DNA from: a bacterium UBP16_UBA6123
GTDB lineage: Bacteria > Muiribacteriota > UBA9980
Assembly: GCA_002423385.1 (NCBI GenBank)
Contig: DIVV01000044.1
Location: 1 to 46,275, forward strand
DNA: 46,275 nucleotides
Reading direction: 5' to 3'
The position numbers and the translations under genes are program-made. The notes beneath the pieces are model-generated. The model saw nothing but the letters and a program-made list of their open reading frames with translations. It did not search any database and was not told where the DNA came from. Below, piece by piece: positions 7,451-22,894 of this stretch (position 1 is the stretch's first letter; each line of letters starts with the position of its first letter).

Positions 7451-7494
7451 TTGCTTTTTTGTGGTAAATAAAGCTTAAAGCTCGATAACATAAT

Positions 7495-7531
7495 AAAACC
7501 CCCGCGGAATTTGATTTCGCGGGGGTTTTTT
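7495..7531. terminator. Bidirectional intrinsic terminator shared by rplL (+) and the flotillin gene (-)
   Basis: AAAA-cccccgcg-(11-nt loop)-cgcggggg-TTTTTT has an 8-bp GC stem flanked by an A-tract and a T-tract, and sits between convergent genes. Confidence 0.8.
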
Positions 7532-7629
7532 ACGCCTGATTAATTTTTTAAAATATATTTACATTACATCATGTCATATTATGCCATATCATATCATTTT
7601 TTTATGATATTGATATACTAATGATATTT

Positions 7630-9156: not shown

Positions 9157-9260
9157 CTCCTTTTTAATATAACTTGTTTTTATTAATGCCCGTGTGTAAA
9201 TCCGTATTTATCCCATATAAGTTCCGTTTGAATTGTATATCAATCGTGCGCTAATGCCTG

Positions 9261-9899
9261 TTATTCCTGAACATAAAGATAATTATTATCCGCTTTTATA
9301 ATATTTACTTTCCTGTTTTTTTCGATCATTTTTCCGTCGATAGATCTGGCCATCGCTACCTGGCGCCTTCCTTTGGCTGCGAATACGACCTGTCCGATAG
9401 GATTTTCATCATTTATACCGACGGTCAGTTCGCCGTTAATGCCTATCATATCGCTTTCTTTCACATTCGAAGAGCTCTGCACTTCACGAAAGACCATCGC
9501 AAAAGCGTAAAAAGTAAGCACGGCTATCATGCAGGCGAAAATAATGCCGGCTACTATGCCCATCACGGCGAAATAATTGCCGAAAACCTTCTGCCAGCAT
9601 ATTCCAAAGCCGCCGAAAGAAGTCGCGAACACCGATATCGTCATAGGAGAAAAAAGGGCCGGACCGGGAAGATTTGAATCGCCCGCGTCAGCTTGAGCGT
9701 GGGAAGTGTCATGACCGGCATGATGAATATCGACGACCCCGTCGCCTGAGTCATGAACTAATTCGTGCGACGAACTTAAATCGCCGTGATCAGCGTCGGA
9801 ATCGCCTGAAAAAGCTGAAAAAACTGCCGACAAAACGGCAAAACCAAGGCCCAGGACGAAGGAAAATGTGTATATTGACCCTAAATGCGCTTCCAGCAT
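9261..9899 (-). CDS. NfeD/YqiJ-like membrane protein, partner of the flotillin
   Basis: The product has multiple TM helices and a C-terminal NfeD-like OB-fold (GINGELTVGINDENPIGQVVFAAKGRRQVAMARSIDG). It lies directly upstream of the SPFH gene in the same orientation. An unusual His/Asp-rich loop (DSDADHGDLSSSHELVHDSGDGVVDIHHAGHDTSH) is also present. Confidence 0.75.
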   Translation of the reverse strand: MLEAHLGSIYTFSFVLGLGFAVLSAVFSAFSGDSDADHGDLSSSHELVHDSGDGVVDIHHAGHDTSHAQADAGDSNLPGPALFSPMTISVFATSFGGFGICWQKVFGNYFAVMGIVAGIIFACMIAVLTFYAFAMVFREVQSSSNVKESDMIGINGELTVGINDENPIGQVVFAAKGRRQVAMARSIDGKMIEKNRKVNIIKADNNYLYVQE

Positions 9900-10019
9900 A
9901 GCATATCTCCTTTTAATAAATTTCTTTTAATTCATTATAATTCTTCGAATACCCAAATAATCTTAACATATTTAGCTATATATGTCAATCTTGATTTTCA
10001 TTTTGATTTCCATTTTATC

Positions 10020-10049
10020 TTGACTGAATAAGTGCTTTCATGTTATAAT
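10020..10049 (+). promoter_or_regulatory. Sigma70-type promoter (TTGACT -17/18- TATAAT) ending about 7 nt before the ATG of the HAD gene, which points to a leaderless mRNA
   Basis: In cTTGACTgaataagtgctttcatgtTATAATtttcactATG there is no RBS between the -10 element and the ATG at 10057. Confidence 0.45.
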
Positions 10050-10056
10050 TTTCACT

Positions 10057-10725
10057 ATGAATTCCAGTAAAAAAAAGAGATTAATTTTACTCGATATCGA
10101 CGATACTTTATTTCGCTGCGACACTTTCGTGGCTCTTATAAAGCATTATCTGTCGGATAATTTCTTTAAGTTGATTTTTCTGCCGCGTCTGATATTTCTA
10201 GCCGCGCTTTTTAAACTCGGAGCGGTTACGAACGTAACTCTTAAAAAAAGCGCGCTGATGATACTTTCCGGCGAAAAGCGCGCGGCTTTAGTTAAACGCG
10301 CAAACCGGCTCATCGATAAACTCTTTTCTAAAAAACTCAACCGCGCGGTATCGGAAGCCGTCAGAAAAATGGCCGCGAGCGGGCTTTACGATATCATAGT
10401 AATATCAGCGTCACCGGCTTTTTACATCGATTTGATAGGGCGGCGGATCAACGCGGCCCATACGATCGCCACGCATATTAAATTCGACGAAAACGATGCC
10501 CTTCAGGCCGAGTTGATCGGTGAAAACTGCAAACACGAAGAAAAAATAACCAGGCTTAAACAAGTAATAAACTTAAACGATTACGACCTGCATAATTCAT
10601 ACGCTTTTTCAGACAGCATCACCGACCTGCCGATGTTCGAGCTCGTCGGCCGGCCCGTAGCCGTCACGCCCGATTTCAGGCTGCATTCACATGCCGTTCA
10701 GAACGGCTATCTTATAATCAATTAA
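10057..10725 (+). CDS. HAD-IB family hydrolase (phosphoserine-phosphatase-like)
   Basis: HAD motif I LLDIDDTLF is present, together with the C-terminal motif AFSDSITDLPMFELVGRPVAV that is typical of the HAD-IB subfamily. Confidence 0.7.
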   Translation: MNSSKKKRLILLDIDDTLFRCDTFVALIKHYLSDNFFKLIFLPRLIFLAALFKLGAVTNVTLKKSALMILSGEKRAALVKRANRLIDKLFSKKLNRAVSEAVRKMAASGLYDIIVISASPAFYIDLIGRRINAAHTIATHIKFDENDALQAELIGENCKHEEKITRLKQVINLNDYDLHNSYAFSDSITDLPMFELVGRPVAVTPDFRLHSHAVQNGYLIIN

Positions 10726-10729
10726 TAAT

Positions 10730-10785
10730 TTATCGACTTATCGACTTATCGACTTATCGACTTATTCACTTATTCGCTTATTCAC
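10730..10785. repeat. Tandem 8-bp repeat (TTATCGAC x4, then TTATTCAC/TTATTCGC/TTATTCAC)
   Basis: The repeat was read directly from the convergent intergenic region between the HAD gene (+) and the ankyrin gene (-). Confidence 0.85.
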
Positions 10786-10844
10786 TTTGTTATTTATCAT
10801 TTTTTCATTTAAATCGATAAAACCCGGCCGCGTCCTTTTTCGGC

Positions 10845-12071
10845 CTATTTGCTTTTTTCGATAAGTAAAGCGGTAATGCGCGAATGTCCCTCCCGCCGGG
10901 AAAGCGATAAAGGCGTATTGCCGTGAAGCGTTACAACGTTAATATCGGCGCCGGAATCTATTAAAAGTTTAGCCGAATCATAACTGCCGATGTAAGCGGC
11001 CCAGGTCAGCGCGGTGTCGCCGTAGCAATCTTTAGCGTTAATATCGACGCCTTTTTCGATTAATAATTTTAATATATCGACGCTTCCGTGTTTTACGGCA
11101 AACGTCGCCGGCTTCATTTTTTCGTTATTCTCGTGCCTGTAATTAGCGCCATTTTCAAGCAGCAGCCTGACGATTCCGGTGAAACGGCTTTCTATGGCAT
11201 AAAATAGAGCGGTATTTCCGGCCTGATCGATTATTTCCATATCGGCGCCTTTTTCCAATAAAAGTTTTACCAGATCGGCATAGCCGCTTTTAGCCGAAAG
11301 CATAAGAGCCGTTTTCGAAGATGAATCGATGGAATTAAGTTTGAACCGGCCGCTATTTATCGAATCTATGGCGCTTTTCGGGTCGCCGGCTTTAATAAGC
11401 TGAAAAATATAATCGCCGGAAACCGTTCCGACTTTTTTAACTTTTTTAACTCCTTTGCCATCCGTATAAGAAGACTCTGAAGTTTCTTCGTTTTTCGATA
11501 TATAAATGCCTATGGCTATCAAAAACAGCATCATGACAAAACCGTATTTTATTATGGTCATAATCAGCGAAAATAAAGCGCCCAATAAATTTTTATTCTG
11601 ACGCTCCGGCGAAGTATAAATGTAGTTATCATTATCCGGCTTCAACTTTTTATTTTTTCTCACGGTTACCACGCCGCCGCGGCCGGCGGAAAGCAGCGCC
11701 GATATTTTTTTTTGAGAATATAACTCGGCGAGTTCGGCGGCGGCAAGCCCGGCGTTATCTTTTAAATGAACATTTGCGCCATTTTTTATAAGCGCCGAAG
11801 CGCTATCCGCGTTGGCGTAAGAAATGGCGTAGATAAGCGCGCTGTTTTTATTTTCATCGACTTTATCTATCGCGGCGTTTTCATTGATAAGAAATTCGAC
11901 GGTTTCGTAAGTTCCCGCCATAGCGGCTATCATTAAAATGGTAATGCCGCTTTTATCAGACCAGTTAACTAAAGACGGATCGGAGGATATGATTTTTTCA
12001 ACTCCACCTTTATCGCCGGATATCGCCGCCGCGATAAGCCTGTCATGTATAAAATTTTTATTGTTGCTCAT
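10845..12071 (-). CDS. Ankyrin-repeat protein with a central transmembrane helix
   Basis: Ankyrin repeats occur both N-terminal (DKSGITILMIAAMAGTYETVEFLINENAAID) and C-terminal (KTALMLSAKSGYADLVKLLLEKGADMEIIDQAGNTALFYAI, GDTALTWAAYIGSYDSAKLLIDSGADIN) to a hydrophobic segment (LLGALFSLIMTIIKYGFVMMLFLIAIGIYI). There is no N-terminal signal peptide. Confidence 0.8.
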   Translation of the reverse strand: MSNNKNFIHDRLIAAAISGDKGGVEKIISSDPSLVNWSDKSGITILMIAAMAGTYETVEFLINENAAIDKVDENKNSALIYAISYANADSASALIKNGANVHLKDNAGLAAAELAELYSQKKISALLSAGRGGVVTVRKNKKLKPDNDNYIYTSPERQNKNLLGALFSLIMTIIKYGFVMMLFLIAIGIYISKNEETSESSYTDGKGVKKVKKVGTVSGDYIFQLIKAGDPKSAIDSINSGRFKLNSIDSSSKTALMLSAKSGYADLVKLLLEKGADMEIIDQAGNTALFYAIESRFTGIVRLLLENGANYRHENNEKMKPATFAVKHGSVDILKLLIEKGVDINAKDCYGDTALTWAAYIGSYDSAKLLIDSGADINVVTLHGNTPLSLSRREGHSRITALLIEKSK

Positions 12072-12183
12072 AAATCACCTTTAATGAATTTATTACGCTG
12101 CTAAATTTTTTTTACAATCATTAATACCGAGCATTATTTTCGCGCATTATTTTCACGCGCTCAAATTTTTACCGCCGGATATA

Positions 12184-13200
12184 TCATGATAAAGCCGAAA
12201 GAAGCTCATCGACGACCCAGCCGTTATCCACGCAAACAAAACTCCACACTTCAGCGTATTCAACCGGCACGTATTCATCGCCTTTAACGACAGAACCGCC
12301 GGATTCGTTTACAGTATAGTCTATCATCGAAAATTTAATAAGCGCTTTCATATACCCGGCACCTGAAACGTCGTCGTTTTTAATCTCTATTATTTTAACG
12401 TCGATAATTTCAACATTCGCAATTATATTGCGCTCGCCCTTTGCCGTTATATCTTCTATGCGGCGCTGCTGCCTGTAGAAAAATCGACGGCTCATATATT
12501 TTTCGGCGCTCGATAATTCCCTTTCGCTCCATGAGCGCTGCACACACTTAAAAACTTCTTTAACGCGCTCGTATAACCGATATAAATCCTGCGTGCCGAT
12601 TTCAGACTGTTTCGCGCCGCTCGTAAGCCCGCTCGCGCCCGCCGGCGAAGATAAAGCGGAAACTGAGGAAAACGAAGCATCCGGGACTAATAAAGAAGAG
12701 GTAACTGAAATTGGAGATAAATTAAAAGAAGATGCCGAAACCGTAGTTAAAGAAGAATTGAGTCTATTTTTAGTTGATAATTTAATATTTAAATAGTGAA
12801 CAATGCCCATGATTGAAATAATTACAAAGGTGCAGAATAAAATTATTGCCGAAGCCAGATGAGCGTGCAGCGAATTGTTACCGCTTGCATACGAAGATTT
12901 ATATCTGGCGGCGCCCGATTTAGCGAACGGCCGCTTTCTGGCCTCCGTCTTATCTTTATAACCATAGCCGAAATCAAGCCCGCCGCCGTAATCAGAAACC
13001 GAATGAACGGCCTGCGATGAGGAACTGACGCTTTTAGCCTGACGCGCATAGGCGCTTTGCGTAAAATAAATAAATAAAACGGCAAAGATAAATGCCGCGG
13101 CCAAAAATGAAAAAAAGGTAGTTTTAAAGCCTTTTTTTAATTTATTTATTACGCAATTAAAGTGATTTATATCTTCGATCTTAACCGTATGAGTCGACAT
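12184..13200 (-). CDS. Membrane protein with a C-terminal Tim44-like domain
   Basis: Two TM helices, Ser-rich low-complexity linkers and a C-terminal region of about 140 aa (LYRLYERVKEVFK...RRFFYRQQRRIEDITAKGERNIIANVEII...EVWSFVCVDNGWVVDEL) resemble Tim44-like domain proteins. The call rests on motif recognition only. Confidence 0.5.
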   Translation of the reverse strand: MSTHTVKIEDINHFNCVINKLKKGFKTTFFSFLAAAFIFAVLFIYFTQSAYARQAKSVSSSSQAVHSVSDYGGGLDFGYGYKDKTEARKRPFAKSGAARYKSSYASGNNSLHAHLASAIILFCTFVIISIMGIVHYLNIKLSTKNRLNSSLTTVSASSFNLSPISVTSSLLVPDASFSSVSALSSPAGASGLTSGAKQSEIGTQDLYRLYERVKEVFKCVQRSWSERELSSAEKYMSRRFFYRQQRRIEDITAKGERNIIANVEIIDVKIIEIKNDDVSGAGYMKALIKFSMIDYTVNESGGSVVKGDEYVPVEYAEVWSFVCVDNGWVVDELLSALS

Positions 13201-13464
13201 GTTTTTTATTATAACAGATTAGAAACAAAAATACAATTCAAAATTAAAGGCTTATAATAGCTCAATAATAGTGTTTTTTACTCGGAAGCGTTCGTTGAAA
13301 AATAAAATAACGGCATCGATAGCTTTAATAATCACAACAACAAATCCAGATAATTAAATTAAACGATAAGATAAAATAAAATGGAAATCCATATATATTA
13401 TTTTTATTTTTAGCCGATATGAAACGTAGTTTGTAAATATTTCGTTAAGACGCGGAGGTATATT

Positions 13465-14874
13465 TTGAGAAGAGTAGCTAAAAGTATTGCAACGGTTGTT
13501 ATTAGCGCATCATTAATGTTTAACGGCGGCGGAATTCATGCGGAAGAAATAAAAAACGAACGCATGAATAAAATAGATGTTCAAAAAACCCTCGATGAAA
13601 TCAGGGCTAAAGTAAATAAAAAAAGCGCTGAAATCAATATAAGCGCGTGCGCTGCCGATCAGCCATGCTCCGTTGAAAAAACTCAACAAACCGTAAAACC
13701 TATTAAAAAAGTAAAAGATTCACAAGATTCAGAATTTAAAAGCGAAGAATGCCTTCAGGCCGTTAAAGAAAAATCTTCGACCACGGCTAAAACTATAGCA
13801 AGTCATGAAGAAAAAATCCAGTTGGCCCAGGCCGCTCCCTTAGAAGTAAAAAAAATGGAAACAGCTCCCGCGCCTCCAACAGCGCCGGCGCCTGCTGCTG
13901 CACCGTCGCCCGTAGTTATTTCCGGCTACACACAGTTGTCGCACACGGTCAGCGACGTGCCGGCGGACAGCCACAGCTTTAACGTGGCAAGGACCAGATT
14001 CGTTTTCAAAAGAAAATTAGACGAAGACCTCAGCTTTTTTTCGCAGTTCAATATTACCGGCAATAACGCCGACTCTTCTCAAATGACGCTTACCGATTTA
14101 TTCGTGCAATATAACCTGGATAAATCACAAAATTTAATGCTCGGACAGTTCGTTGTTCCGGGTAACTATGAAGCCACAATTTCTCCGCGTGATTTGTATA
14201 TGATAAATTACGGACAACACATAATAAACACCGAACACGAAAATAGAGGCAACGACCTGCGCGACGTAGGTATAACCTACAATTACCGCAAGCCTGGCGA
14301 CAACTGGGGATTATCCATAGCGGCAGTTAACGGCGAAGGCATAAATACCCGCAACGATTCAACCGATTCAAAAACCATAATGGCGCGCCTGGACCTTGAA
14401 GCCGACAAGGCCCTCAAATTAGGCCTTTACGCCTCCGACGGCAAGCGCTTTAAAGCCGCATCCACGGCCGCTCAGGTAGCTTTTTACGGCGCAGACGGAG
14501 CCGCTACTACCGCAAAATCATTCGATAGAAAACGCGCCGGTTTTGACGCGCGCTATAAAAAAGATAAATTGACGCTTCAGGGCGTTTATGAAATTTTGGA
14601 AACCGGCCTCGCAGGCCGCGCCGGAAATCTCAAAGGTAAAGGTATGTTCGTTCAGGCCGGATATTTCGTTATGCCTAAACTTGAATTAACCTATAAACAC
14701 GACGCATTTACCCCTAATAAAGACAATACCGTTACCAAACGCACCATCAACGCCGCCGGTTTTAACTGGTTCATTAAAAAAGGCGCGAAATTACAGATGG
14801 TTTACCAGAAACAAAAAGAAACACCCGAAGTTAAAAACGACCGCCTGGATACGCTCGTTACAGTGGAATTCTAA
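13465..14874 (+). CDS. Outer-membrane beta-barrel protein, porin-like (possibly phosphate-selective porin O/P family)
   Basis: A TTG start with the strong RBS GGAGG is followed by a signal peptide (MRRVAKSIATVVISASLMFNGGGIHA). The product has a Pro/Ala-rich linker, alternating amphipathic strands and a C-terminal ...VTVEF ending in Phe. Confidence 0.6.
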   Translation: MRRVAKSIATVVISASLMFNGGGIHAEEIKNERMNKIDVQKTLDEIRAKVNKKSAEINISACAADQPCSVEKTQQTVKPIKKVKDSQDSEFKSEECLQAVKEKSSTTAKTIASHEEKIQLAQAAPLEVKKMETAPAPPTAPAPAAAPSPVVISGYTQLSHTVSDVPADSHSFNVARTRFVFKRKLDEDLSFFSQFNITGNNADSSQMTLTDLFVQYNLDKSQNLMLGQFVVPGNYEATISPRDLYMINYGQHIINTEHENRGNDLRDVGITYNYRKPGDNWGLSIAAVNGEGINTRNDSTDSKTIMARLDLEADKALKLGLYASDGKRFKAASTAAQVAFYGADGAATTAKSFDRKRAGFDARYKKDKLTLQGVYEILETGLAGRAGNLKGKGMFVQAGYFVMPKLELTYKHDAFTPNKDNTVTKRTINAAGFNWFIKKGAKLQMVYQKQKETPEVKNDRLDTLVTVEF

Positions 14875-14976
14875 TATGATAATAATCCGGTTAATTTGAT
14901 TTATTTTGATTTAACTTGATTTAATTTAATCGAGCTGACTTGAGCCAATTAAATTTAACTTAATATTTAATTTTTG

Positions 14977-15019
14977 AAGGGGAGGGAGAAAGGGTTAGCA
15001 ACCCTTTCTCCCTCCCCTT
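14977..15019. repeat. Perfect hairpin with 20-bp arms and a 3-nt loop (AAGGGGAGGGAGAAAGGGTT-agc-AACCCTTTCTCCCTCCCCTT)
   Basis: The hairpin was read directly; its purine arm and pyrimidine arm are exactly complementary. No T-tract follows, so it is not a classic terminator. Confidence 0.85.
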
Positions 15020-15090
15020 TACCCCTCCCTCTTTCGGCAAATTACCTGACGCTTTATCGCTGGTTTGTCGATAGCTTTTTCTGTCGTGGC

Positions 15091-15190
15091 TTTAATTTCT
15101 TTTTCTTTCTCTTTTTTACTTTTACTCTTTCTTTTTTGTTTCTTTATTGCTTTCTTGCCTTTTACTCATTTTTCTGCCAGCTTGCTTGTT
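15091..15190 (+). repeat. Polypyrimidine (about 85% C/T) tract on the + strand
   Basis: tttaatttctttttctttctcttttttacttttactctttcttttttgtttctttattgctttcttgccttttactcatttttctgcc was read directly from the sequence. Confidence 0.8.
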
Positions 15191-15191
15191 T

Positions 15192-15218
15192 GCATTTGCG
15201 TGCGGCGCACGCAAATGC
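15192..15218. repeat. Perfect 27-nt palindrome (13-bp arms, 1-nt centre): gcatttgcgtgcg-g-cgcacgcaaatgc
   Basis: Read directly; the motif is GC-rich within AT-rich surrounding DNA. Confidence 0.8.
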
Positions 15219-15493
15219 GCAGCGATAATGGCACTACCGTAACTATGCCTTGCGGCTCGCGGGAAAAACTAATGTAAATCGGTTTTGATAATTGCACCGT
15301 TAAAAATTATCGCAAAAATATTTAATATCGTAAAAGATAAAATTAAGTTTTGTCGAGGGCTTTTAAAATGGCGACTAATTAATTTTGTTTATCATTAACA
15401 AGGTTTATAATGCTTTTGTATAATAAAAGTTGTTATTTTTTAATGCCTTATCGTGAGCATCAATATTAAGTTCCGGCAGTGCGTAAATAGAAC

Positions 15494-15520
15494 GCCTTCG
15501 CGCGCGCCGCGCGCGAAGGC
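15494..15520. repeat. Perfect 27-nt palindrome (13-bp arms, 1-nt centre) with an alternating CG core: gccttcgcgcgcg-c-cgcgcgcgaaggc
   Basis: Read directly; its architecture matches the palindrome at 15192-15218. Confidence 0.8.
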
Positions 15521-15559
15521 AAAACTAACAAAAGACGTGAAAAAGGTTTATGGCATGAC

Positions 15560-15590
15560 AGAAAGAGAAGAAAGAGAAGAAAGAGAAAAG
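15560..15590 (+). repeat. Pure-purine run containing three tandem copies of GAAAGAGAA
   Basis: The sequence is a-gaaagagaa-gaaagagaa-gaaagagaa-aag, read directly. Confidence 0.8.
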
Positions 15591-15695
15591 CAAGGACTTT
15601 GTTTATGAGCTATTAAAAAACTTCGAAGCCGGCAGGAAATGCCGCTTGAAATAAAAAGGCTATGATAATAGACTTTTTATATTCCGGGAGAGATT

Positions 15696-15757
15696 GGGGG
15701 GCTATGGGGGGCAAGAGAGGGTCTTCGACCCTTTCTTCCCCCCCGTCCCGTTCCCGC
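15696..15757. repeat. Imperfect G/A-rich hairpin related to the one at 14977-15019 (GGGGGG..GGGGGGCAAGAGAGGGTC-ttc-GACCCTTTCTTCCCCCCC...)
   Basis: The core stem gagagggtc/gaccctttc has one G-T wobble and is extended by a G6/C7 pairing with a bulge. It shares the core agggtY...RaccctttcYYccc with hairpin A. Confidence 0.7.
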
Positions 15758-15789
15758 GTTGAAAGTATGGTTACAAATATAAGTTTTTC

Positions 15790-15818
15790 TTGACTTATTA
15801 TATATATTTTTATATACT
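15790..15818 (+). promoter_or_regulatory. Putative sigma70 promoter for the aminotransferase gene (TTGACT -17- TATACT)
   Basis: The sequence is cTTGACTtattatatatatttttaTATACTtaag, which would give a 5' UTR of about 80 nt. Confidence 0.4.
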
Positions 15819-15906
15819 TAAGACAAAAAAATAAAATAGTAATTTTGTATTCAAGTATTTAAATTTTATTTATAATGCTTACATAGAGCAATTAGGGGTG
15901 TCAAAG

Positions 15907-17253
15907 ATGAAATATGAAAAAATTGTTGTAAAAACCGAACTTCCGGGTCCGATTTCAAAGAAGATAATCGGCATCGATGAAAAGTTCGTTTCGCACTCGT
16001 ATACCAGAGATTACGGCATGGTAGCCAAACGCGGTGAAGGCGCATTTGTCGAAGATCCCGACGGTAACGTATTTCTCGATTTTTCAGCCGGAATAGCCGT
16101 TTGCTCGACCGGCCATTGCCACCCCGAAATTGTCGAGGTTATTCGCAAACAGTCTCAAGAATTAATACACATGTCCGGCACCGATTTTTACTATGAAACT
16201 CAAGTCATGCTGGCTGAAAAAATCTCGAAAATAGTGCCTATAGAAAATTCCAGCAGCGATAATCCCGTAATGTCGTTTTTCGGCAATTCCGGCGCGGAAG
16301 CCATCGAAGCTGTCATTAAAATCGCTCGCAGCCACACGCACCGTTCCCGCATGCTCGCCTTTATAGGCGCATTTCATGGCCGTACGATGGGCGCGCTTTC
16401 ACTTAACGGCTCTAAAATACGCCATCACGAACATTTTCACCCGCTAGTTCCCGGCGTCGTTCATGCGCCTTACGCTTATTGCAAACGCTGCCCTTATGGC
16501 GCGCATTATCCCGGTTGCAAGCTCGAATGTTTTGATTTTATTAAAAAAACGCTTATGACAAAGATAATATCGCCTGAAGATATATCCTGCGTTATAATGG
16601 AAGCCGTTCAGGGCGAAGGCGGATACGTAGTTCCGCCGGTTGAATTCGTAAAGGCGATGCGCGATCTGACTCGCGAACACGGAATATTGCTCGCTATCGA
16701 TGAAGTGCAGTCCGGCATGGGCCGCACCGGAAAAATGTTCGCCATCGAGCATTTCGGCGTTAAACCCGATATAATGGCCATAGCAAAGGGTATCGCCTCC
16801 GGCCTTCCGCTGTCGATAACCTGCGCCAGCCGCGAAGTAATGAACTGGAAACCTGGCGCTCACGCCTCCACTTTCGGCGGCAATCCAGTCGCCTGCGCCG
16901 CCGCTAATAAAACCATCGAGCTTCTCGAAAACGGTATTCTCGAAAATGTAAATGCTACCGGCGCATATTTAAAATCGAAACTCGAGGCCATGCAGAATAA
17001 ATATGAATTTATAGGCGACGTCCGCGGCCTCGGTCTCATGCTGGCCATCGAAATCGTCGATAACAAAAAAGATTTTAATCCCGACGCGGAGCTTCGCGAC
17101 AGAATACTTCACGCGGCTTTCGCTAAAGGCCTTATAATTTTAGGCTGCGGCCCTAACAGCGTCAGATTCGCGCCGCCGCTTATAGTTACTAAAGTCCACA
17201 TCGATATGGTGTGCGAAGTTTTAGAAAGCGTTTTCGAAGGCCTGAAAAAATAA
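15907..17253 (+). CDS. Class III PLP-dependent aminotransferase (GabT/ArgD/ornithine aminotransferase family)
   Basis: The product has a GNSGAEAIEAVIKIAR motif, the DEVQSGMGRTGKMFA PLP-lysine region and a TFGGNPVACAAA motif. The ATG at 15907 follows the RBS GGGGTG. The ORF-track GTG at 15898 overlaps that RBS. Confidence 0.9.
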   Translation: MKYEKIVVKTELPGPISKKIIGIDEKFVSHSYTRDYGMVAKRGEGAFVEDPDGNVFLDFSAGIAVCSTGHCHPEIVEVIRKQSQELIHMSGTDFYYETQVMLAEKISKIVPIENSSSDNPVMSFFGNSGAEAIEAVIKIARSHTHRSRMLAFIGAFHGRTMGALSLNGSKIRHHEHFHPLVPGVVHAPYAYCKRCPYGAHYPGCKLECFDFIKKTLMTKIISPEDISCVIMEAVQGEGGYVVPPVEFVKAMRDLTREHGILLAIDEVQSGMGRTGKMFAIEHFGVKPDIMAIAKGIASGLPLSITCASREVMNWKPGAHASTFGGNPVACAAANKTIELLENGILENVNATGAYLKSKLEAMQNKYEFIGDVRGLGLMLAIEIVDNKKDFNPDAELRDRILHAAFAKGLIILGCGPNSVRFAPPLIVTKVHIDMVCEVLESVFEGLKK

Positions 17254-17272
17254 ATCAATCAGGAGGCGACTT

Positions 17273-18112
17273 ATGTTTAAAAATATATTACTGCCGGTTG
17301 ACGGCTCCGAATACGGTGTTTCACAGCTTCGTCACGCGCTCGACTTTGCCGCTATATACGGCGGTAAAATAACGCTTTTGCATGTAGTAGATATCAAGAT
17401 CGTCGAAGGCCCTCTGCTGCGCGATCTTACCTTTTTATCCGAAGCGGTCACCGATTTCGAGTATCACAACGAAATAAAAAACTCTCTCGAAGAAAAAGGA
17501 AATCTCATACTGCAGAAACTTAGCGCTATTTGTGAAGAAGCCGGCGCGGTTTTTGAAACTAAACTGATACCCGGCATTATTTCAAATACCATTGCCGAAA
17601 ACGCCAGGACGGCCGATCTTGTCATTATGGGCAAGCGCGGTGAAAACGCGAGCTTCGGCAGCAGCGCTTTTTTAGGCTCCGTGGCTGAGGCTTCCACCAG
17701 GCTTTCAAATAAGCCGGTTATGCTCGTCGATGAAACCTATAAAAAGCTGGAAAAAGTTCTTTTCGCCTACGACGGAACTCAATCGGCGAATAAAGCGCTT
17801 CAATTGTTAGCGCAGTTAGTGATAGAGTCTAAATATGACCTTTCGGTTGTAACCGTATCCGATGACGATGTTGACGGAAAAGCCATATTAGACGAGGCTG
17901 TATCCTATCTGGAAACTTACAATATAAAACCCGTGCAGCTTTTAAAGAGCGGCGATGTCGTAAATACGATAATATTAACCGCTGAAGAAGCCGCCTGCGA
18001 CGCCATTATGATGGGCGCTTACGGTCATTCGGCCATTCATCAGATGCTTCTCGGCTCGACTACCACGCTTTTAGTCAGGGCCGCAAAGCTGCCGGTGATT
18101 TTATACCGTTAA
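17273..18112 (+). CDS. Universal stress protein with tandem UspA domains
   Basis: The 279-aa product contains two copies of the UspA fold pattern (ILLPVDGSEYG...LLHVV; VLFAYDGTQSANKAL...MMGAYGHSAIHQMLLGSTT). The RBS is AGGAGG. Confidence 0.85.
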   Translation: MFKNILLPVDGSEYGVSQLRHALDFAAIYGGKITLLHVVDIKIVEGPLLRDLTFLSEAVTDFEYHNEIKNSLEEKGNLILQKLSAICEEAGAVFETKLIPGIISNTIAENARTADLVIMGKRGENASFGSSAFLGSVAEASTRLSNKPVMLVDETYKKLEKVLFAYDGTQSANKALQLLAQLVIESKYDLSVVTVSDDDVDGKAILDEAVSYLETYNIKPVQLLKSGDVVNTIILTAEEAACDAIMMGAYGHSAIHQMLLGSTTTLLVRAAKLPVILYR

Positions 18113-18191
18113 TACGGCCGCCGGAATTTTAAATTTCCGGCCGCCGGTTTTAATAAAGCGTAGCAGGTAAAGTCTGGAACGGAGAATAGTT

Positions 18192-19544
18192 ATGTCAGAT
18201 GAGCAAAGTTACGATGTGGACGAAGGTGAACTTAAAAAGTATAACGCCCTGGTTTATAAGGTGGAACGCGGTTCTATCGCCTTCCGCGCCGGAATCAAGC
18301 CGAAAGACAGGATAATATCGATTAATTCGCATATATTGAGCGATCTTATCGATTATAATTATTGCGTCGGCGATTCTAATATAAAGGTTTTAGTAGAGAG
18401 GGGCCATAACGAGCTTATAGAGTTCGATATTGAAAAAGATTACGATGAAGATCTCGGCGTCGCTTTTGAAAGTCCGGTTTTTGATTCGATAACAAGATGC
18501 GCCAATTCATGTATATTTTGCTTTATGGACCAGATGCCGGGAGATCTTAGAAAATCTCTTTATTTAAAAGATGAAGACTACAGGCTTTCTTTTTTATACG
18601 GCAATTTCATAACGATGACCAGGATGAACGAGCAAGATTTCGAGCGCATTAAATCTTTATATCTTTCGCCGCTTTATATTTCAGTGCATACCACTAACAC
18701 GAAATTGCGCAAGCAGATATTAAAAAGCCATAAAGCCGAAAATATTTTAAAGCAGCTCGAAGAACTCACTTCGTCGGGAATATCGATTCATACTCAAATA
18801 GTTTTAATACCCGAAATAAACGACGGCGACGAATTAGTCAAGACCATAGAAGATCTTTCATATTTTTACCCTCAGCTCGAAAGCATAGGCATCGTGCCTG
18901 TAGGCCTTACTCAGTACCGTGAAGGGCTTACGGCTCTGCGCGAGTTCAGCGAAAAAGAGGCGCGCGCGGTAATCGCCATGATAAAGCCTTATCAAAAAAA
19001 ATTCAGGCGCCGTTTCGATAAAAATTTAATTTATCTTGCGGACGAATTTTACTATAAAGCCGGAGAGCCTCTTCCAGAGGGAAGCGAATACGACGATTAT
19101 CCCCAGTACGAAAACGGCATCGGCATAGCGCGCTATTTTTACGACGAGTACCACTCTAATTTGAGCAAGATACCTTCGAAGATTAAATATCCGAAAAAAT
19201 TCGCGATGGTAACCGGCGAGCTTGGCGCCATGGCTCTTTCTAATATAGTCCACGATCTTAATTCGCGTATCGCGGGCCTCGAAATAAAACTCGAAGCGGT
19301 CGAAAACGCTTTTTTCGGCGGCGGCGTTAATGTAACGGGCCTTCTTACGGGCCGCGATATAATAGCGCATTTTATGAAAAAGCCTAAAGATATTCCAGAA
19401 ACCATAGTTATTCCGTCGGTGATGCTTAACGGCGATATATTCTTAGACGAGGTAACTACAGATTATCTCAGAAATGAACTTTCCACGAATGTGGATATTA
19501 TCGATAATAACTTTAAAAGCCTTCTGGAATACATATTAAAATAA
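18192..19544 (+). CDS. DUF512-family protein (N-terminal PDZ-like domain plus a radical-SAM-like core)
   Basis: A PDZ-like N-terminus (KVERGSIAFRAGIKPKDRIISINSHIL) is followed by a CANSCIFCFMDQMPG Cys cluster. It lies immediately upstream of der, where DUF512 genes are commonly found. Confidence 0.65.
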   Translation: MSDEQSYDVDEGELKKYNALVYKVERGSIAFRAGIKPKDRIISINSHILSDLIDYNYCVGDSNIKVLVERGHNELIEFDIEKDYDEDLGVAFESPVFDSITRCANSCIFCFMDQMPGDLRKSLYLKDEDYRLSFLYGNFITMTRMNEQDFERIKSLYLSPLYISVHTTNTKLRKQILKSHKAENILKQLEELTSSGISIHTQIVLIPEINDGDELVKTIEDLSYFYPQLESIGIVPVGLTQYREGLTALREFSEKEARAVIAMIKPYQKKFRRRFDKNLIYLADEFYYKAGEPLPEGSEYDDYPQYENGIGIARYFYDEYHSNLSKIPSKIKYPKKFAMVTGELGAMALSNIVHDLNSRIAGLEIKLEAVENAFFGGGVNVTGLLTGRDIIAHFMKKPKDIPETIVIPSVMLNGDIFLDEVTTDYLRNELSTNVDIIDNNFKSLLEYILK

Positions 19545-19589
19545 AAAAATGTAATTATAACGAAACAAATTATAGATAAAATAAAATGA

Positions 19590-21197
19590 TTGACGGGTGA
19601 AAGAATGTTAGCAAAAGCTGTAATAATTGGCCGGCCAAACGTTGGAAAATCAACGCTCTTTAACAGGATTATAGGCAAAAGACGCGCGCTCACGCACGAA
19701 ACTCCGTACCTTACGCGCGATGCGCTCATAGAGATTGTCGCATGGAACGAGATGAAGTTTGAAATTATAGATACGGCCGGAATGGATATTAACGTTAAAA
19801 GTAAACTTAATACCAGTATTATAGAATTTTTAAAAGTTTATATCGAAAAAGCCGATCTTATATTTTTCGTAGTTGACGGGTTTTCGCAAATTACTCTGCT
19901 CGACGATCAGATAGTTAATCTGCTTAGAAAATCGGGCAAAAAAATAGCTCTGGTAGTTAATAAGGCCGATGATCCAAAGGCCGTTAAATTAAATTTTGAA
20001 TTCAGCAAGTTCGGTTTTAAAGATATGTTTTTAGTTTCGGCCATTCACGGCAGCGGAGTAGCCGATATTTTAGACTACGCCGCTAATTATTTTAAAGAAA
20101 TTGGCTTTAAGCCCGTCGCTAAAAAAACCGGAGCGTTAAAGCCTATAGTCGATGAAAAAAAACGCGGCCGTTCCGCAAAAGATAGAGACGCCGCTGCAAA
20201 AGCTAATCTTAAATCTAAAAAAACTTCCGGAGTCGATGATTACGCCGAGTATGAAGAAATCGAAGAGTTCGATCCGAAAACCGATATCAACGACGACGAT
20301 CCCGACGCCATTATTGAAAAGCAAAAGCTCGAGCACCGCGGTCTTTTAATAAAAAAAGCCATAGATATAGCGCTTGTCGGCCAGCCTAATTCGGGCAAGT
20401 CTTCTTATTTAAACAATATCCTGGGTTATCAGCGGACGCTTGTATGCGAAGAACCGGGCACCACGCGTGATTCCGTCGATACCCTCATAACTTTCGAAGG
20501 ACGCGAGATCAATTTGATCGATACGGCCGGAGTGCGTAAAAACACTTCTTCTTACGATAATATCGAATTCTATTCGGTCAAGCGCTCGATTGCGAGCCTT
20601 GAAAAGGCCGACGTAGCCATTATTTTAATCGACATTACAAAGGGTATAACCTTTCAGGATAAGCATCTTCTGGACCTTGCCTTCGAAAACGGCAAAGGCG
20701 TGGTTTTAGCTATTAATAAAGTCGATCTTGTCAAAAAAAGCGAGCTGGATAAATTATCTAACGATATCGTCGAATATATCCACAAAGAGTTTCCCGATTC
20801 GGCTAACGCGCCGAAATTTTTTATAAGCGCGCAGAAGGGCACCAATTCTTTCGCCCCTCTTCAAAAAGCCATAGAAATATATGAGAAAGCAGTCAATTCG
20901 GCTATCACTACCTCGGTTTTGAATTCATATCTTACCGAGATCGTTTCGCTGCATCCGCCCGCCTCGTATAAGGGCAAGCCGCTTAAAATTTATTATTCGA
21001 CTATAATAGCGCGCACTCCGCCCACTTTTATTTTATTCGTAAACGATCCGGCTTACGTTTCGCGGGCCTACAAGCGTTATATTATAAATAAATTCAGAGC
21101 CGCTTTCGAGTTCGAGGGTTACCCCGTCCGTCTGGTTTTTAAAAAGAGCCTTTCGCGCGATAAAGCCGTCGAAAGAGGAAGCGGGCGCAGGAGATAA
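19590..21197 (+). CDS. der: Ribosome-biogenesis GTPase Der (EngA) with an extended charged inter-domain linker
   Basis: Two GTPase domains are present (GRPNVGKSTLFNRI...DTAG...NKAD; GQPNSGKSSYLNNI...DTAG...NKVD) followed by a KH-like C-terminus. The alternative start ATG at 19605 gives MLAKAVIIGRPNVGKS. Confidence 0.92.
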   Translation: MTGERMLAKAVIIGRPNVGKSTLFNRIIGKRRALTHETPYLTRDALIEIVAWNEMKFEIIDTAGMDINVKSKLNTSIIEFLKVYIEKADLIFFVVDGFSQITLLDDQIVNLLRKSGKKIALVVNKADDPKAVKLNFEFSKFGFKDMFLVSAIHGSGVADILDYAANYFKEIGFKPVAKKTGALKPIVDEKKRGRSAKDRDAAAKANLKSKKTSGVDDYAEYEEIEEFDPKTDINDDDPDAIIEKQKLEHRGLLIKKAIDIALVGQPNSGKSSYLNNILGYQRTLVCEEPGTTRDSVDTLITFEGREINLIDTAGVRKNTSSYDNIEFYSVKRSIASLEKADVAIILIDITKGITFQDKHLLDLAFENGKGVVLAINKVDLVKKSELDKLSNDIVEYIHKEFPDSANAPKFFISAQKGTNSFAPLQKAIEIYEKAVNSAITTSVLNSYLTEIVSLHPPASYKGKPLKIYYSTIIARTPPTFILFVNDPAYVSRAYKRYIINKFRAAFEFEGYPVRLVFKKSLSRDKAVERGSGRRR

Positions 21198-21209
21198 AAG
21201 TATTTAATT

Positions 21210-21830
21210 ATGGATAATTTAAACGAGCTGATAATATTTTTAGCGGTCAGTTATTTGATCGGGTCCATACCCACCGCTTTTTTATTTGGAAAAATTTTAA
21301 AAAATGTCGATATAAGAAAAGAGGGATCTGGCAATATCGGCGCTTCGAACGCCTTTCGCGTGCTTGGCGCTAAAATAGGCGTTTTAGTGATGATCTTCGA
21401 TATTTTCAAGGGTTTTTCCCCTCTATATCTGGCTAAAGTTAAAATGACGCCCTGCGCCCGTTTTGAAATGTATCTTCTGATAATAGGGCTGGCGGCCGTT
21501 TTAGGACATATGTTCCCGTTGTTTTTAAAGTTTAAGGGCGGCAAGGGCGTTGCGACTACCGCCGGTGTTTTTCTGGCGCTCGCGCCCAAAGCGACCGGCC
21601 TTTGCATATTGATGTGGTTTTTGTTAGTCGCGATATCTAAAATGGCTTCGGTGGGATCGCTTGCGGCTGCGGCCGCGCTTCCTTTCGCCGTTTATTATAT
21701 CGAAGGCGCCTCGCTTTTTTTAACTTCGGTTTCAGCGGTGATAGGGCTTCTTGTAATAATAATGCACCGTAAAAATATTAAAAATTTAATCGCGGGAACC
21801 GAACTTAAGATTAATTCAAAAATTAAATGA
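21210..21830 (+). CDS. plsY: Glycerol-3-phosphate acyltransferase PlsY (acyl-phosphate dependent)
   Basis: GSGNIGASNAFRVLG and FKGGKGVATTAG motifs are present in a polytopic membrane protein. Confidence 0.93.
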   Translation: MDNLNELIIFLAVSYLIGSIPTAFLFGKILKNVDIRKEGSGNIGASNAFRVLGAKIGVLVMIFDIFKGFSPLYLAKVKMTPCARFEMYLLIIGLAAVLGHMFPLFLKFKGGKGVATTAGVFLALAPKATGLCILMWFLLVAISKMASVGSLAAAAALPFAVYYIEGASLFLTSVSAVIGLLVIIMHRKNIKNLIAGTELKINSKIK

Positions 21831-21846
21831 AGAAAAAATAAAGCTG

Positions 21847-22887
21847 GTGGTTGTCAGAATGAGTGTTTCGCAAACGGTTTCGATAATAGGCGCGGGTGCG
21901 TGGGGAACTACGCTGGCCTCGATGATCGCTCGTAAGGGCATTAAGGTGAAAATCTGGGCCTATAAAAAAGAAACCTGTGAAGATATTAATAAATTTCGTG
22001 AAAATCGGGAGTTTTTACCGGGAATAGCCGTCGCAGAAAGCGTTTCAGCTTCAGGCGATCTCGAATTCGTTTTAAGCGGCTCACGCTTTGTCGTGCTGGC
22101 TTCGCCGTCTCATACGCTTCGGCCGTTATTAAAAAAAATGGCGCCTTACCTGAGCGGTAAAAATGATTTTATATCGGTTGTTAAGGGCATCGAAGAAAAA
22201 ACTTTTTTAAGCGTATCGCAGCTTGTAGAGCAGGAATTCGAATCTATTGCCGGGCTGGAAAAAATAAAAAACAAAATAGCGGTGGTTTCGGGGCCAAATC
22301 TCGCCCGTGAAATCGCGGCCGGCCTGCCGTCTTCGACAGTGGCCGCGGCCAGGTCAAAAAAATTAAGGGACGAAGTCCAGTTGCTTTTATCCAACAATCG
22401 TTTTCGCGTATATACCTCCGATGATGTCGCCGGGCTCGAATTCGGCGGTTCGCTCAAGAATATAATGGCCATAGGCGCGGGAATTTGCGACGGTTTGAAT
22501 TACGGCGATAACACCAAATCGGCGTTTCTGACCAGGGCGCTTCGTGAAATGGTTATGATAGGCGAGTTGCGCGGAGCGCGCCGCGACACTTTTTACGGTT
22601 TATCGGGCGTGGGCGATCTTTTCGCTACGAGTTTTTCAAAATATTCACGCAACCGTTCGTTCGGCGAGAAATTAGCCCGCGGAATGAGCCGCGCCGAAGC
22701 GGAAGGCGCGATAACCGGAATAGCCGAGGGTGTGCATACTGCCCGCGCCGCTTATCTTTTTGGCCGGAAAGAAAAATTGGAATTTCCGGTGATAAATGAA
22801 ATATATTGCATAATTTACGAGCAGAAGGAGCCGGCCGAATCGGTGATGGCGCTTATGACAAGAACCCTTAAGGGCGAGTGCGAGTGA
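21847..22887 (+). CDS. gpsA: NAD(P)H-dependent glycerol-3-phosphate dehydrogenase
   Basis: The Rossmann motif IIGAGAWGTTLA is present and the central and C-terminal regions match GpsA (GLEFGGSLKNIMAIGAGICDGL). The alternative ATG start is at 21859. Confidence 0.93.
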   Translation: MVVRMSVSQTVSIIGAGAWGTTLASMIARKGIKVKIWAYKKETCEDINKFRENREFLPGIAVAESVSASGDLEFVLSGSRFVVLASPSHTLRPLLKKMAPYLSGKNDFISVVKGIEEKTFLSVSQLVEQEFESIAGLEKIKNKIAVVSGPNLAREIAAGLPSSTVAAARSKKLRDEVQLLLSNNRFRVYTSDDVAGLEFGGSLKNIMAIGAGICDGLNYGDNTKSAFLTRALREMVMIGELRGARRDTFYGLSGVGDLFATSFSKYSRNRSFGEKLARGMSRAEAEGAITGIAEGVHTARAAYLFGRKEKLEFPVINEIYCIIYEQKEPAESVMALMTRTLKGECE

Positions 22888-22894
22888 GGTCGAT

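Follow-up and report, generated by a model that had tools for sequence, protein, structure and literature searches.

The ends of IS200/IS605 insertion sequences are asymmetric, with the left end abutting a fixed short flank and no duplication of the target, and the known TnpA hairpins are short and imperfect. Members of this family have subterminal hairpins that are recognised at both ends, and their transposition proceeds through single-stranded DNA (PMC3201880, PMC6006769). REPs measure 20–40 nt, occur in high copy and have a conserved GTAG-type head (PMC8266576). The locus described here lies in a window of 46,275 nt (the whole stretch of DNA that was analysed) and contains two hairpins, A and B, which are the two termini of a discrete, noncoding and protein-free element of ~785 nt, so far undescribed. 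The coordinates of the element and of its parts are collected in Table 1.

Table 1. Parts of the hairpin-ended element and adjoining features, in window coordinates
Feature	Position	Strand	Remarks
Whole noncoding element, ~785 nt	14972–15756	+	Hairpin A to extended hairpin B
Hairpin A, left terminus	14977–15019		Perfect 20+3+20 palindrome
38-nt stretch common to both paralogous copies	14998–15035		Switch point from porin-locus to aminotransferase-locus contig
C-box ACCCCTCCCTC and 'block 1' GCAAATTnCCTGACGCTTTATCGyTGGTTTGTCGATArCTTTTTCTGTC	15020–15092	+	
CT-rich, G-poor tract, variable in length and microsatellite-like	15093–15185	+	
GC palindrome 1	15186–15228		Core 15192–15218 (13+1+13); conserved flanks TTGTTTGCA...TGCG
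Left arm GGCTCGCGGGAA of 10–12-nt inverted repeat around centre	15254–15265	+	By eye from alignment
AT-rich variable centre	15284–15415		Alignment of copies
Promoter-like site TTAACA-18-TATAAT, rightward	15395–15424	+	11/12 consensus matches
Right arm TTATCGTGAGCA of centre-flanking inverted repeat	15448–15459	+	Alignment
GC palindrome 2 (13+1+13), then conserved AAAACTrACAAA	15494–15520		
GA-rich tract, approximately complementary to CT tract; variable, microsatellite-like in other copies	15555–15593	+	
Small hairpin CGGCAGGAAATGCCG and AT-rich terminator-like hairpin AAAAAGGCTATgataATAGACTTTTT	15630–15680	+	
Hairpin B, right terminus	15685–15756	+	G-box GGGGGG-CTAT 5' of core 15706–15744
Native aminotransferase promoter TTGACT-17-TATACT, outside element	15790–15818	+	

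Hairpin A is, as an earlier note on this DNA had recognised, a flawless 20+3+20 palindrome, AAGGGGAGGGAGAAAGGGTT-agc-AACCCTTTCTCCCTCCCCTT, its 5' arm rich in purines and its 3' arm in pyrimidines; by chance, 46 kb would be expected to contain ~4e-8 perfect inverted repeats of 20 bp with exactly 3 nt between the arms. When both hairpins were folded as RNA, as the note had proposed, each bettered all 200 of its shuffles: the minimum free energy of A was −41.1 kcal/mol against −22.6±3.6 kcal/mol for dinucleotide shuffles (0/200 folded as well), and the extended, imperfect form of B reached −46.4 kcal/mol (0/200 as good). Hairpin B and its relationship to A had also been read correctly. Its 18-pair core, GGGGGGCAAGAGAGGGTC-ttc-GACCCTTTCTTCCCCCCC, includes a C.C mismatch and a G.T, and A and B are 74% identical across 39 nt. 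Counting the shared core pattern, a check that the note had named for the whole genome, returned only A and B in the 46-kb window (4 strand-hits vs 0.01 expected).

No T-run follows either hairpin, the sequence directly 3' of A being TTTACCCCTCCC and that directly 3' of B GTCCCGTTCCCG. An intrinsic terminator was taken here as a GC-rich stem-loop with T or U in at least 5 of the 8 positions immediately after it, a proportion that neither TTTACCCC behind A nor GTCCCGTT behind B attains, and a terminator-like scan of the window listed neither hairpin, in agreement with the earlier view that these are not canonical terminators. The claim that the two lie in the same orientation needs correcting: each stem is palindromic and orientation is unreadable from it, and a covariance model of A with its flank scored B alike on both strands (32.6 bits minus, 32.5 plus) because the ends are palindromic. 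The C-box 3' of A and the G-box 5' of B are both found on the inner sides of the element, and the 5' arm of A and the 3' arm of B, the latter reverse-complemented, agree at 15 of 18 nt, so that the unit has terminal inverted repeats as MITEs do; the flanking boxes and the interior layout suggest that A and B are laid out as inverted terminal repeats. Triplex or G-rich structures, which had also been raised, gained nothing from the data, the arms being inverted and not mirror repeats.

Homology between independent genomic contexts begins at TTTTTGAAGGGG and stops at approximately CCCCCGTCnCGTTC, and the native aminotransferase promoter marks the resumption of homology to element-free relatives. 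The conserved block beside hairpin A is ~75 nt long, and the composition of 15020–15185 (CT tract included) is 53% T, 25% C and 12% G. The interior is roughly two-fold, with palindrome 1 and palindrome 2 81% complementary to each other and the CT tract matched by the GA tract. The centres of other copies hold tandem repeats (a 15-mer approximately nine times in L004, GCCCCTTATTGG three times in L089). Palindrome 2 is terminator-like on the minus strand only, and the hairpins at 15630–15680 are also present in L089 and are missing from L004 and L094.

In one Wallbacteria population the element is found at two loci, one between porin and nuoF and the other between a gene for a 698-aa protein and an aminotransferase gene; contigs L001 (698-aa gene, element, aminotransferase) and L004 (porin, element) represent the two in one and the same sample. 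The same spacers in close relatives are short and without the element, with canonical terminators at three of four such element-free sites. Relatives with a 90–91% identical aminotransferase have the same gene order and a 155–300-bp spacer from which the element is missing, and the porin–nuoF spacer of L088 has a canonical terminator and no element, while the element is present in that spacer in L089, L094, L091, L093, L087 and L004. The order of modules (A and block 1, CT tract, palindrome 1, AT centre with promoter-like site, palindrome 2, GA tract, B) is constant in five diverged copies; L091 is a copy from which an internal deletion has removed palindrome 2 and the GA tract, and L093 is a truncated remnant in which only A and block 1 are left. 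These contigs place the element in one sub-clade of Candidatus Wallbacteria.

In Wallbacteria loci totalling ~297 kb, the covariance model of A and its flank matched element ends only, and no extra copies were found by blastn and covariance model against all the loci compared. The earlier suggestion of REP/MITE-like copies therefore survives in its MITE-like half, as a bracketed unit at two loci, and finds no support for a dispersed REP, with element ends as the only matches in ~297 kb. High copy number was not seen across the ~297 kb scanned, nor a GTAG head at the hairpin feet or an HUH gene in the window. The 5' flank of A is TTTTT at both loci; in copy v1 TTTTT precedes A and also the −35 region on the right, which in AT-rich DNA is weak as a target-site duplication. 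The spacers of the relatives are too diverged for the insertion point to be mapped. Three candidate observations were rejected: an insertion in the 698-aa gene at its 3' end (beside its orthologues the protein is full length), a target preference for TTTTTCTTGACT (no more than the promoter consensus of the locus, found again at 10015), and a second island at 1560–2620 of L001 (a tRNA cluster).

Contig overlaps indicate that the window contig is itself probably a chimera, spliced within the 38-nt stretch that starts in the 3' arm of A: window 3465–15035 is 100% identical to L004 and window 14998–27253 is 100% identical to L001, and the two contigs continue differently. The earlier note had remarked neither on this probable misjoin nor on the promoter-like site and the larger conserved layout with palindromes 1 and 2. 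Seven related contigs (L002, L003, L004, L087, L091, L092 and L093) stop inside the element. Such hairpins break or misjoin short-read assemblies, which matters for synteny work with these MAGs.

All four stem-loops have kept their pairing via changes on both sides. Hairpin A is identical at 43/43 positions between the window and L089, compared with 65% at porin third-codon positions and 46% in the adjacent spacer, and by this comparison its rate of change is far below that of neutral sites; L087 and L094 have a compensated G-C to A-T variant and L001 has one uncompensated change. No part of the element is better conserved than A with the C-box and block 1 (88–96% among full copies). The core helix of B, 98.6% paired in four copies, has three pairs in which both partners differ and a G.U constant in all of them, palindrome 1 differs in sequence in every copy and is palindromic throughout (six pairs changed on both sides), and palindrome 2 has five pairs with both-side changes across copies, counts that come from 4–5 related sequences and are suggestive, not decisive. 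Template-switch 'palindrome correction' can yield compensated changes in perfect palindromes without selection. In the alignment, a putative closing helix between the inner flanks of A and B shows uncompensated changes. A picture of the whole element as a tight foldback rod found weak support and was set aside, its z of −10 coming mostly from the four local hairpins, and strand assignment by whole-element folding energy was dropped, the copies being inconsistent.

Rfam searches of the window at the gathering threshold returned one tRNA only, and at a relaxed threshold the island gave only sub-threshold matches of miRNA-precursor type on the bare hairpins. An exact scan of GTDB genomes with the conserved interior pattern gave 0 matches, as did the hairpin-A pattern in viral contigs, and blastn with the element found no match in plasmids and phages; a loosened interior pattern gave two chance matches in JGI metagenomes (L005 and L006), both in unrelated eukaryote-like coding DNA. 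The ORFs of the island (84, 70, 51 and 43 aa) are unconserved, with frameshifts and stops between copies, a pseudo-ORF across hairpin A had no matches in the protein database, and the changes in block 1 (2 synonymous : 4 non-synonymous) give no sign of selection on coding. No transposase, recombinase, integrase, invertase or HUH gene was found in the 46-kb window. The ssoA-type CS-6 loop, DnaA boxes, retron a1/a2 and attC were considered by their generally known defining motifs and rejected, these being absent or unconserved among the copies.

The reading that we favour, to which we would give about an even chance of being right, makes A and B the terminal stem-loops of a non-autonomous insertion element of low copy number, with a further role as a transcript-end or insulator structure. 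The element would be MITE- or PATE-like and would have been copied at least once, probably via a single-stranded intermediate whose end hairpins would be recognised or give protection. After insertion, A and the C-rich, G-poor tract behind it may serve the upstream gene as its 3'-end structure or as a barrier to transcription, and B would close the unit ahead of the promoter of the next operon, where it could end or insulate a transcript from the internal promoter. Hairpin A lies 102 nt past the porin stop and, in L001, 96 nt past that of the 698-aa gene, and at both occupied sites there is no canonical terminator between the upstream stop codon and A; B stands behind no gene. That such hairpins are simply the terminator style of the organism, an outcome that the earlier note had allowed for, is not supported, canonical hairpin and T-run terminators being used elsewhere (for example window 7495–7529, L001 2601–2632, and in L088, L090 and L008).

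Several observations count against an insertion element. The documented loci are two, of which only one is lineage-specific, which amounts to one copying event, and this could be a hairpin-bounded segmental duplication, not transposition. Copy number looks low and no autonomous parent is known. Strong purifying selection on A and block 1 in a vertically inherited copy fits a host function, as an RNA gene or terminator, at least equally well.

A host noncoding-RNA locus with two paralogues, producing a ~0.8-kb structured RNA or an sRNA of ~250–330 nt from the internal promoter, is a possible reading, though one that we would not expect to prevail; A and B would then be 5'/3' stability, processing or termination structures, much as the earlier note had suggested for the two ends of an RNA, and mobility would be incidental. 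The −10 of the promoter-like site retains its upstream TG (TGnTATAAT) in four of the five copies and is followed by ~150 nt of conserved sequence, change at A with block 1 and at B is slower than at neutral sites, and U.G pairs are conserved in the extended helix of palindrome 1. The conserved G.U pairs of B on the plus strand, by which B of the window copy folds better on that strand (−46.4 vs −38.8 kcal/mol), weakly favour an RNA, and the remainder of the element still beats shuffles with the four hairpins removed (z −3.5 in v1, −4.3 in v3), although whole-element folding of v3 and v4 has no consistent strand asymmetry. A long-range pairing, GGCTCGCGGTAA / TTACCGTGAGCC, is compensated and has G.T on the plus strand, but it encloses the promoter, and an RNA derived from that promoter would therefore be without one of the arms. 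Furthermore, A and palindromes 1 and 2 are perfect to the centre, with 0–3 nt between their arms, as is typical of DNA-level symmetry and not of RNA hairpins under selection, L091 has dispensed with palindrome 2 and the GA tract and L093 with all but A and block 1, the helix that would close the inner flanks of A and B is not kept by compensatory changes, and no Rfam family matches.

A more novel proposal, which we consider doubtful, is a new kind of hairpin-ended noncoding element, either a structured-RNA or ssDNA mobile unit of ~0.8 kb or a portable 'insulated promoter cassette'. As a mobile unit, its long purine/pyrimidine stem-loops would be recognised by some trans-acting enzyme that copies it; as a cassette, it would replace the terminator of a gene and add a transcription start upstream of the next operon, with a central promoter that is possibly invertible. 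The sequence-free covarying palindromes at fixed positions might then act as structural signals in a so far undescribed mechanism.

It is unlikely that A and B just terminate or insulate the flanking operons, as unconventional structures poor in U-tract, and that what lies between them is ordinary fast-evolving spacer. The distance of A from the porin stop, with no other terminator there, the canonical terminators at that position in element-free relatives and the likeness of the C-rich, G-poor tract past A to a Rho loading site would all suit such a role, as would the truncated L093, which retains exactly A and block 1. However, the whole set of modules recurs in the same order at a second unrelated locus, such a hairpin is found at no other gene in ~297 kb of Wallbacteria sequence, B ends no gene, and the T-run is missing from both hairpins.

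Very unlikely is an inverton, in which the AT-rich centre would be an invertible promoter within the 12-nt inverted repeat and would drive transcription to either end hairpin. The 10–12-nt repeat (15254–15265 pairing with 15448–15459, with G.T pairs on the plus strand) does flank a promoter-bearing segment of 180–300 bp, with a coordinated, compensated change in L089 (GCTTACGGTA / TACCGTAAGC), and the rough two-fold layout of the interior would fit, but one orientation is seen in all five assemblies, three copies retain a G/A mismatch between the arms and no invertase gene is nearby in the window. Scarcely credible are attL/attR- or dif-type sites of a tyrosine/Xer recombinase, or integron-cassette attC sites: A and B are each a dyad, like recombinase core sites, and delimit a discrete unit between related sites, but their centres (AGC/GGC in A vs TTC/ATT in B) and the adjacent bases differ, and there is therefore no identical crossover region for A x B recombination, arms of 18–20 bp around a spacer of 3 nt are at odds with the 6–8-bp overlap geometry of such sites, A is perfect, without the bulges or extrahelical bases and the GTTRRRY at the outer ends of an attC, and the window holds no integrase.

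Should the insertion-element reading be right, a candidate phylum known from metagenomes only would carry a small noncoding element with at least one move behind it, replacing canonical terminators, placing a promoter-like site ahead of core operons (nuo and aminotransferase/EngA) and keeping four stem-loops conserved by structure and not by sequence. It would also offer a tractable case for studying how hairpin-ended, protein-free elements are copied and how transcription boundaries are rewired.

Compared with intrinsic terminators, A is similarly a stable GC-rich stem-loop at ~100 nt past a stop, in the position of the canonical terminator of the relatives, but its stem of 20–22 bp is perfect and lacks the U-tract, and B is not behind a gene. 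Like OLE, GOLLD, ROOL and HEARO (Rfam), the element is several hundred nucleotides long, noncoding and narrow in phylogenetic range, with several conserved helices that covary; unlike them, it has no Rfam match, perfect palindromes and large deletions in some copies. With RAYT-associated REP/REPIN sequences it shares intergenic palindromes downstream of genes that are able to stabilise or terminate upstream transcripts, whereas its hairpins are confined to the ends of a 0.8-kb unit, in low copy and without GTAG at their feet. The ORF-less derivatives of IS200/IS605 (PATEs) are similar in having hairpins at both ends, and the left flank here is TTTTT at both loci, but the stems are 18–22 bp and GC-rich, that of A is perfect, and a Y1/HUH transposase gene is absent from the 46-kb window. 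The element departs from MITEs in that each of its 'TIRs' is a stem-loop of 40–70 nt, ~0.8 kb is large for a MITE, the interior has covarying palindromes and a promoter-like site, and there are two loci only, with no demonstrable target-site duplication and no parent IS with matching ends known. Nevertheless, like MITEs and other non-autonomous IS derivatives, it is short and protein-free, its ends are related and its outer arms are inverted (15/18 nt), and, as with MITEs, it is intergenic, occupies more than one locus, is present or absent among relatives and has left internal deletions and truncated remnants.

Hairpins A and B bound a discrete, protein-free unit of about 785 nt. It occupies two loci and is missing from orthologous sites; structure is what is conserved in its stem-loops, and strong constraint acts on its left end. 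Hairpin A is a perfect 20+3+20 inverted repeat (AAGGGGAGGGAGAAAGGGTT-agc-AACCCTTTCTCCCTCCCCTT) with an RNA fold of -41.1 kcal/mol, against -22.6±3.6 for dinucleotide shuffles (0 of 200 as good), while hairpin B has a core of 18 pairs (GGGGGGCAAGAGAGGGTC-ttc-GACCCTTTCTTCCCCCCC) and, in its extended, imperfect form, folds at -46.4 kcal/mol (0 of 200 shuffles as good). Sequence and folding thus confirmed that both hairpins of the earlier note are real and non-random, and the shared core it described was borne out by 74% identity across 39 nt and by a motif count giving 4 strand-hits in the 46-kb window (0.01 expected), all at these two sites. As it had also observed, no T-run follows A or B in the window sequence, and a terminator scan of the window detected neither. 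Its statement that A and B share one orientation did not hold: palindromic stems have no direction of their own, and a covariance model of A and block 1 (the conserved stretch just 3' of A) matched B at equal score on both strands. The inner flanks (a C-box 3' of A, a G-box 5' of B) and the interior layout, in which palindrome 1 shows 81% complementarity to palindrome 2 and a CT tract is set against a GA tract, suggest from sequence that the ends are terminal inverted repeats.

Contigs L001 and L004, both from ENA sample ERZ27315036, were found by exact-protein look-ups. L001 carries a 698-aa gene, the island (copy v1) and the aminotransferase gene in that order; L004 carries the porin gene, hairpin A and a diverged island paralogue (v2), inside whose hairpin B the contig stops, and homology between the two begins at TTTTTGAAGGGG, five bases 5' of A. 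The nearest genomes were MAGs of Candidatus Wallbacteria and relatives (aminotransferase identity 90–96%). L008, L009 and L011 (aminotransferase 90–91% identical) share the L001 gene order (HEAT/WG protein, PNP_UDP protein, 698-aa orthologue, aminotransferase), the orthologue having ~700 aa in L009 and L011 and being a 440-aa ORF in L008; the element is absent from their orthologue–aminotransferase spacers (155–300 bp), and similarity returns at the aminotransferase promoter (TTTTyCTTGACTTATTATATATATTTTTATATACT, window ~15783-15818). The 698-aa protein is full length, and the insertion is therefore intergenic. In the porin–nuoF spacer the element is complete in L089 (v3) and L094 (v4), has lost internal sequence in L091 (v5), is partial in L087 and survives in L093 as hairpin A and block 1 alone; the same site in the more distant L088 (porin 69% identical) lacks the element and has a canonical terminator in a 258-bp spacer, and GWC2_49_35 and L098 have no element and different neighbours. 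Given occupancy in several porin–nuoF lineages and the empty aminotransferase sites, the element is so taken to be old at porin–nuoF in one sub-clade and to have been copied later to the aminotransferase locus. A T-run followed by CTTGACT (TTTTTCTTGACT...TATAAT) is common to several strong promoters of the lineage, and both element copies lie directly 5' of such promoters; it appears to be a local promoter consensus and not an insertion target.

In the window, which makes up one entire NCBI contig of 46,275 bp, positions 3465-15035 are 100% identical to L004 and 14998-27253 to L001, the two parts overlapping by just 38 nt (14998-15035: the last loop base of A, its 3' arm and the C-box). L001 and L004, separate contigs in another assembly of this population (one sample, k=141), continue differently, and synteny in relatives favours porin to nuoF and 698-aa gene to aminotransferase; on this basis the most likely origin of the window's porin–island–aminotransferase arrangement is a chimeric join through the 38-nt repeat, a real recombinant being less likely. 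Seven related short-read contigs, drawn from different samples, stop within the element (five in A or B), and these GC-rich stem-loops appear to break assemblies via coverage drop-out or repeat collapse. L007 starts outside the element, 4 nt 5' of the aminotransferase ATG.

The remaining window genes are housekeeping (fusA, tuf, a tRNA, secE-nusG-rplKAJL, a chemotaxis cluster), and no transposase, recombinase or reverse transcriptase is found among the window genes. Genes for ankyrin-repeat and Tim44-like proteins, whose domains are eukaryote-like and unusual in a bacterium, adjoin the ribosomal-protein cluster in every Wallbacteria relative examined. Tandem ~10-nt repeats (TTGATTTAAn x3–4) lie within the AT-rich spacer from the porin stop to A, with a longer array in L094 and L087; this spacer is outside the element because it is missing from the L001 copy. 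In L089 the porin stop codon lies within an 18-nt direct duplication (CAGTGGAATTTTAATTAA x2).

Positions and composition of features (window coordinates unless a contig is named)
Feature	Position	Description
Porin_O_P-type gene	13465-14874	left neighbour of island
Island (intergenic)	14875-15906	between porin and aminotransferase
Class-III aminotransferase	15907-17253	right neighbour; then Usp, radical-SAM/DUF512, EngA genes
Module 1	14977-15019	hairpin A
Module 2	15020-15092	C-box and conserved ~75-nt block
Module 3		CT-rich, G-poor tract, length variable
Module 4		TTGTTTGCA, then GC palindrome 1, then TGCG
Module 5		conserved stretch with GGCTCGCGGTAA at its end
Module 6		AT-rich variable centre; 15-mer x~9 (L004), GCCCCTTATTGG x3 (L089)
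Module 7		-10 preceded by TG (TGnTATAAT), retained by 4 of 5 copies
Module 8		TTACCGTGAGCC
Module 9		GC palindrome 2, then AAAACTrACAAA
Module 10		GA-rich tract
Module 11		variable stretch; AT-rich terminator-like hairpin in v1 and v3
Module 12	B core 15706-15744; extended 15685-15756	CCGGGAGAG, G-box, hairpin B, then GTCnCGTTC
Promoter-like site	15395-15424	TTAACA-18-TATAAT, 11/12 matches
Satellite arrays	L004 11905-12045, 12265-12310; L089 2205-2260, 2395-2460, 2660-2710; L094 3775-3815	
Additional palindrome (v3)	L089 2841-2871	AAAACTGCGCGCGC-aca-GCGCGCGCAGTTTT
Interrupted palindrome 1 (v4)	L094 3368-3440	GCAGGCGCGCGTG-[...]-CACGCGGCCTGC
T-run+CTTGACT promoters	15785-15795, 10015-10025; L088 11675-11690; L094 3958-3992	
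TTGATTTAAn repeats	14891-14930	
Direct duplication	L089 2020-2055	
Canonical hairpin+T-run terminators	7495-7529, 3331-3367; L001 2601-2632	
tRNA cluster	L001 1560-2640	~nine genes
Ankyrin-repeat protein gene	10845-12071 (-)	408 aa
Tim44-like-domain protein gene	12184-13200 (-)	
Contig breaks	15241; 15743	L002 start; L003 start
Contig breaks		L004, L087 ends; L091, L092, L093 starts

Module order, taken from an eight-sequence alignment, is constant. Conservation is highest in A and block 1 (88–96% among full copies), with 50–81% in interior blocks and 72–91% in B. Copy-specific micro- and minisatellites fill the variable parts of different copies (TAAGTCAAGyTATAT x~9, (GATGGTA)n, (CTCCTCTTTT)n, GCCCCTTATTGG x3 at ~27-nt spacing, (GAGAAA)n, (ACCACTAATG)n); the 15-mer and 12-mer arrays occupy positions that could hold a site for a replication or regulatory protein, with no link between copies. 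The additional perfect GC palindrome of v3, just 5' of hairpin B and flanked by A and T runs, has the shape of a canonical bidirectional terminator, and its right half alone (CGCAGTTTT) occurs in L091 at the edge of the internal deletion. In v4, palindrome 1 is interrupted by a GC-rich insert of ~46 nt, its outer arms still pairing.

Hairpin A is identical in the window and L089 (43/43), against 65% at porin third-codon positions and 46% in the spacer just 5' of A. In L087 and L094 a left-arm G-to-A change is compensated by a right-arm C-to-T, so that the palindrome remains perfect; the single change in L001 has no partner change. Across four copies, pairing in the hairpin B core helix stands at 98.6%, with both-side changes at three pairs; one G.U pair is invariant, and with the other G.U pairs the + strand folds better. 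Palindromes 1 and 2 differ in sequence in almost every copy and are palindromic at the same positions throughout (six and five both-side-changed pairs, respectively), and a 12-nt inverted repeat around the centre changes coordinately in L089 to GCTTACGGTA / TACCGTAAGC. These pairing comparisons cover just 4–5 related sequences. The palindromes are perfect to their centres (0–3 nt between arms), a perfection that template-switch mutation, besides selection, can maintain.

The whole element folds at -290.7 kcal/mol, against -210±8 for shuffles, with the four local hairpins contributing most; with these removed, v1 still gave z of -3.5 (+) and -1.7 (-), and v3 about -4.4 for either strand. Strand asymmetry was inconsistent among copies, and uncompensated changes accumulate in the putative closing helix between the flanks of A and B. 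These results do not establish that the element forms a tight foldback rod.

We favour, with about even confidence, a composite reading: a non-autonomous insertion element of low copy number, with terminal stem-loops that would function in single-stranded nucleic acid and with hairpin A serving the upstream gene as a transcript-end or barrier structure. Neither occupied site has a canonical terminator from the upstream stop codon to A, whereas three of four element-free sites examined have one (L008, L088, L090), and the C-rich, G-poor tract behind A (T 53%, C 25%, G 12%) looks, on composition, like a Rho loading site; these observations argue that hairpin A and the tract probably now end transcripts or act as a barrier. 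The putative internal promoter faces hairpin B and the operon beyond.

A host ncRNA locus is the next most likely reading and clearly less probable. Plain unconventional terminators are improbable. The organism has canonical hairpin+T-run terminators elsewhere, among them those behind the porin genes of L088 and L090, which argues against the 'terminator style' raised earlier. As a baseline for terminator style, bidirectional canonical terminators follow rplL (AAAACCCCCGCGGAATTTGATTTCGCGGGGGTTTT) and tuf in the window, and one closes the L001 tRNA cluster. Recombination sites and an invertible promoter carry small weight; an attC site was ruled out (A is perfect, without extrahelical bases), as was an att-site pair (A and B have unlike centres), integrase being absent nearby in both cases.

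Of the earlier note's options, a MITE-like element or RNA-end structures proved partly right; a REP-like high-copy family found no support, A/B-type hairpins occurring solely at element ends in ~297 kb of Wallbacteria loci. No Rfam family matched the unit, and no ORF is conserved among copies. Plasmids, phages and viral contigs yielded no relative, and searching GTDB genomes and JGI metagenomes by pattern gave no genuine match. We regard the element as a new variant in the broad class of noncoding palindromic and insertion elements.
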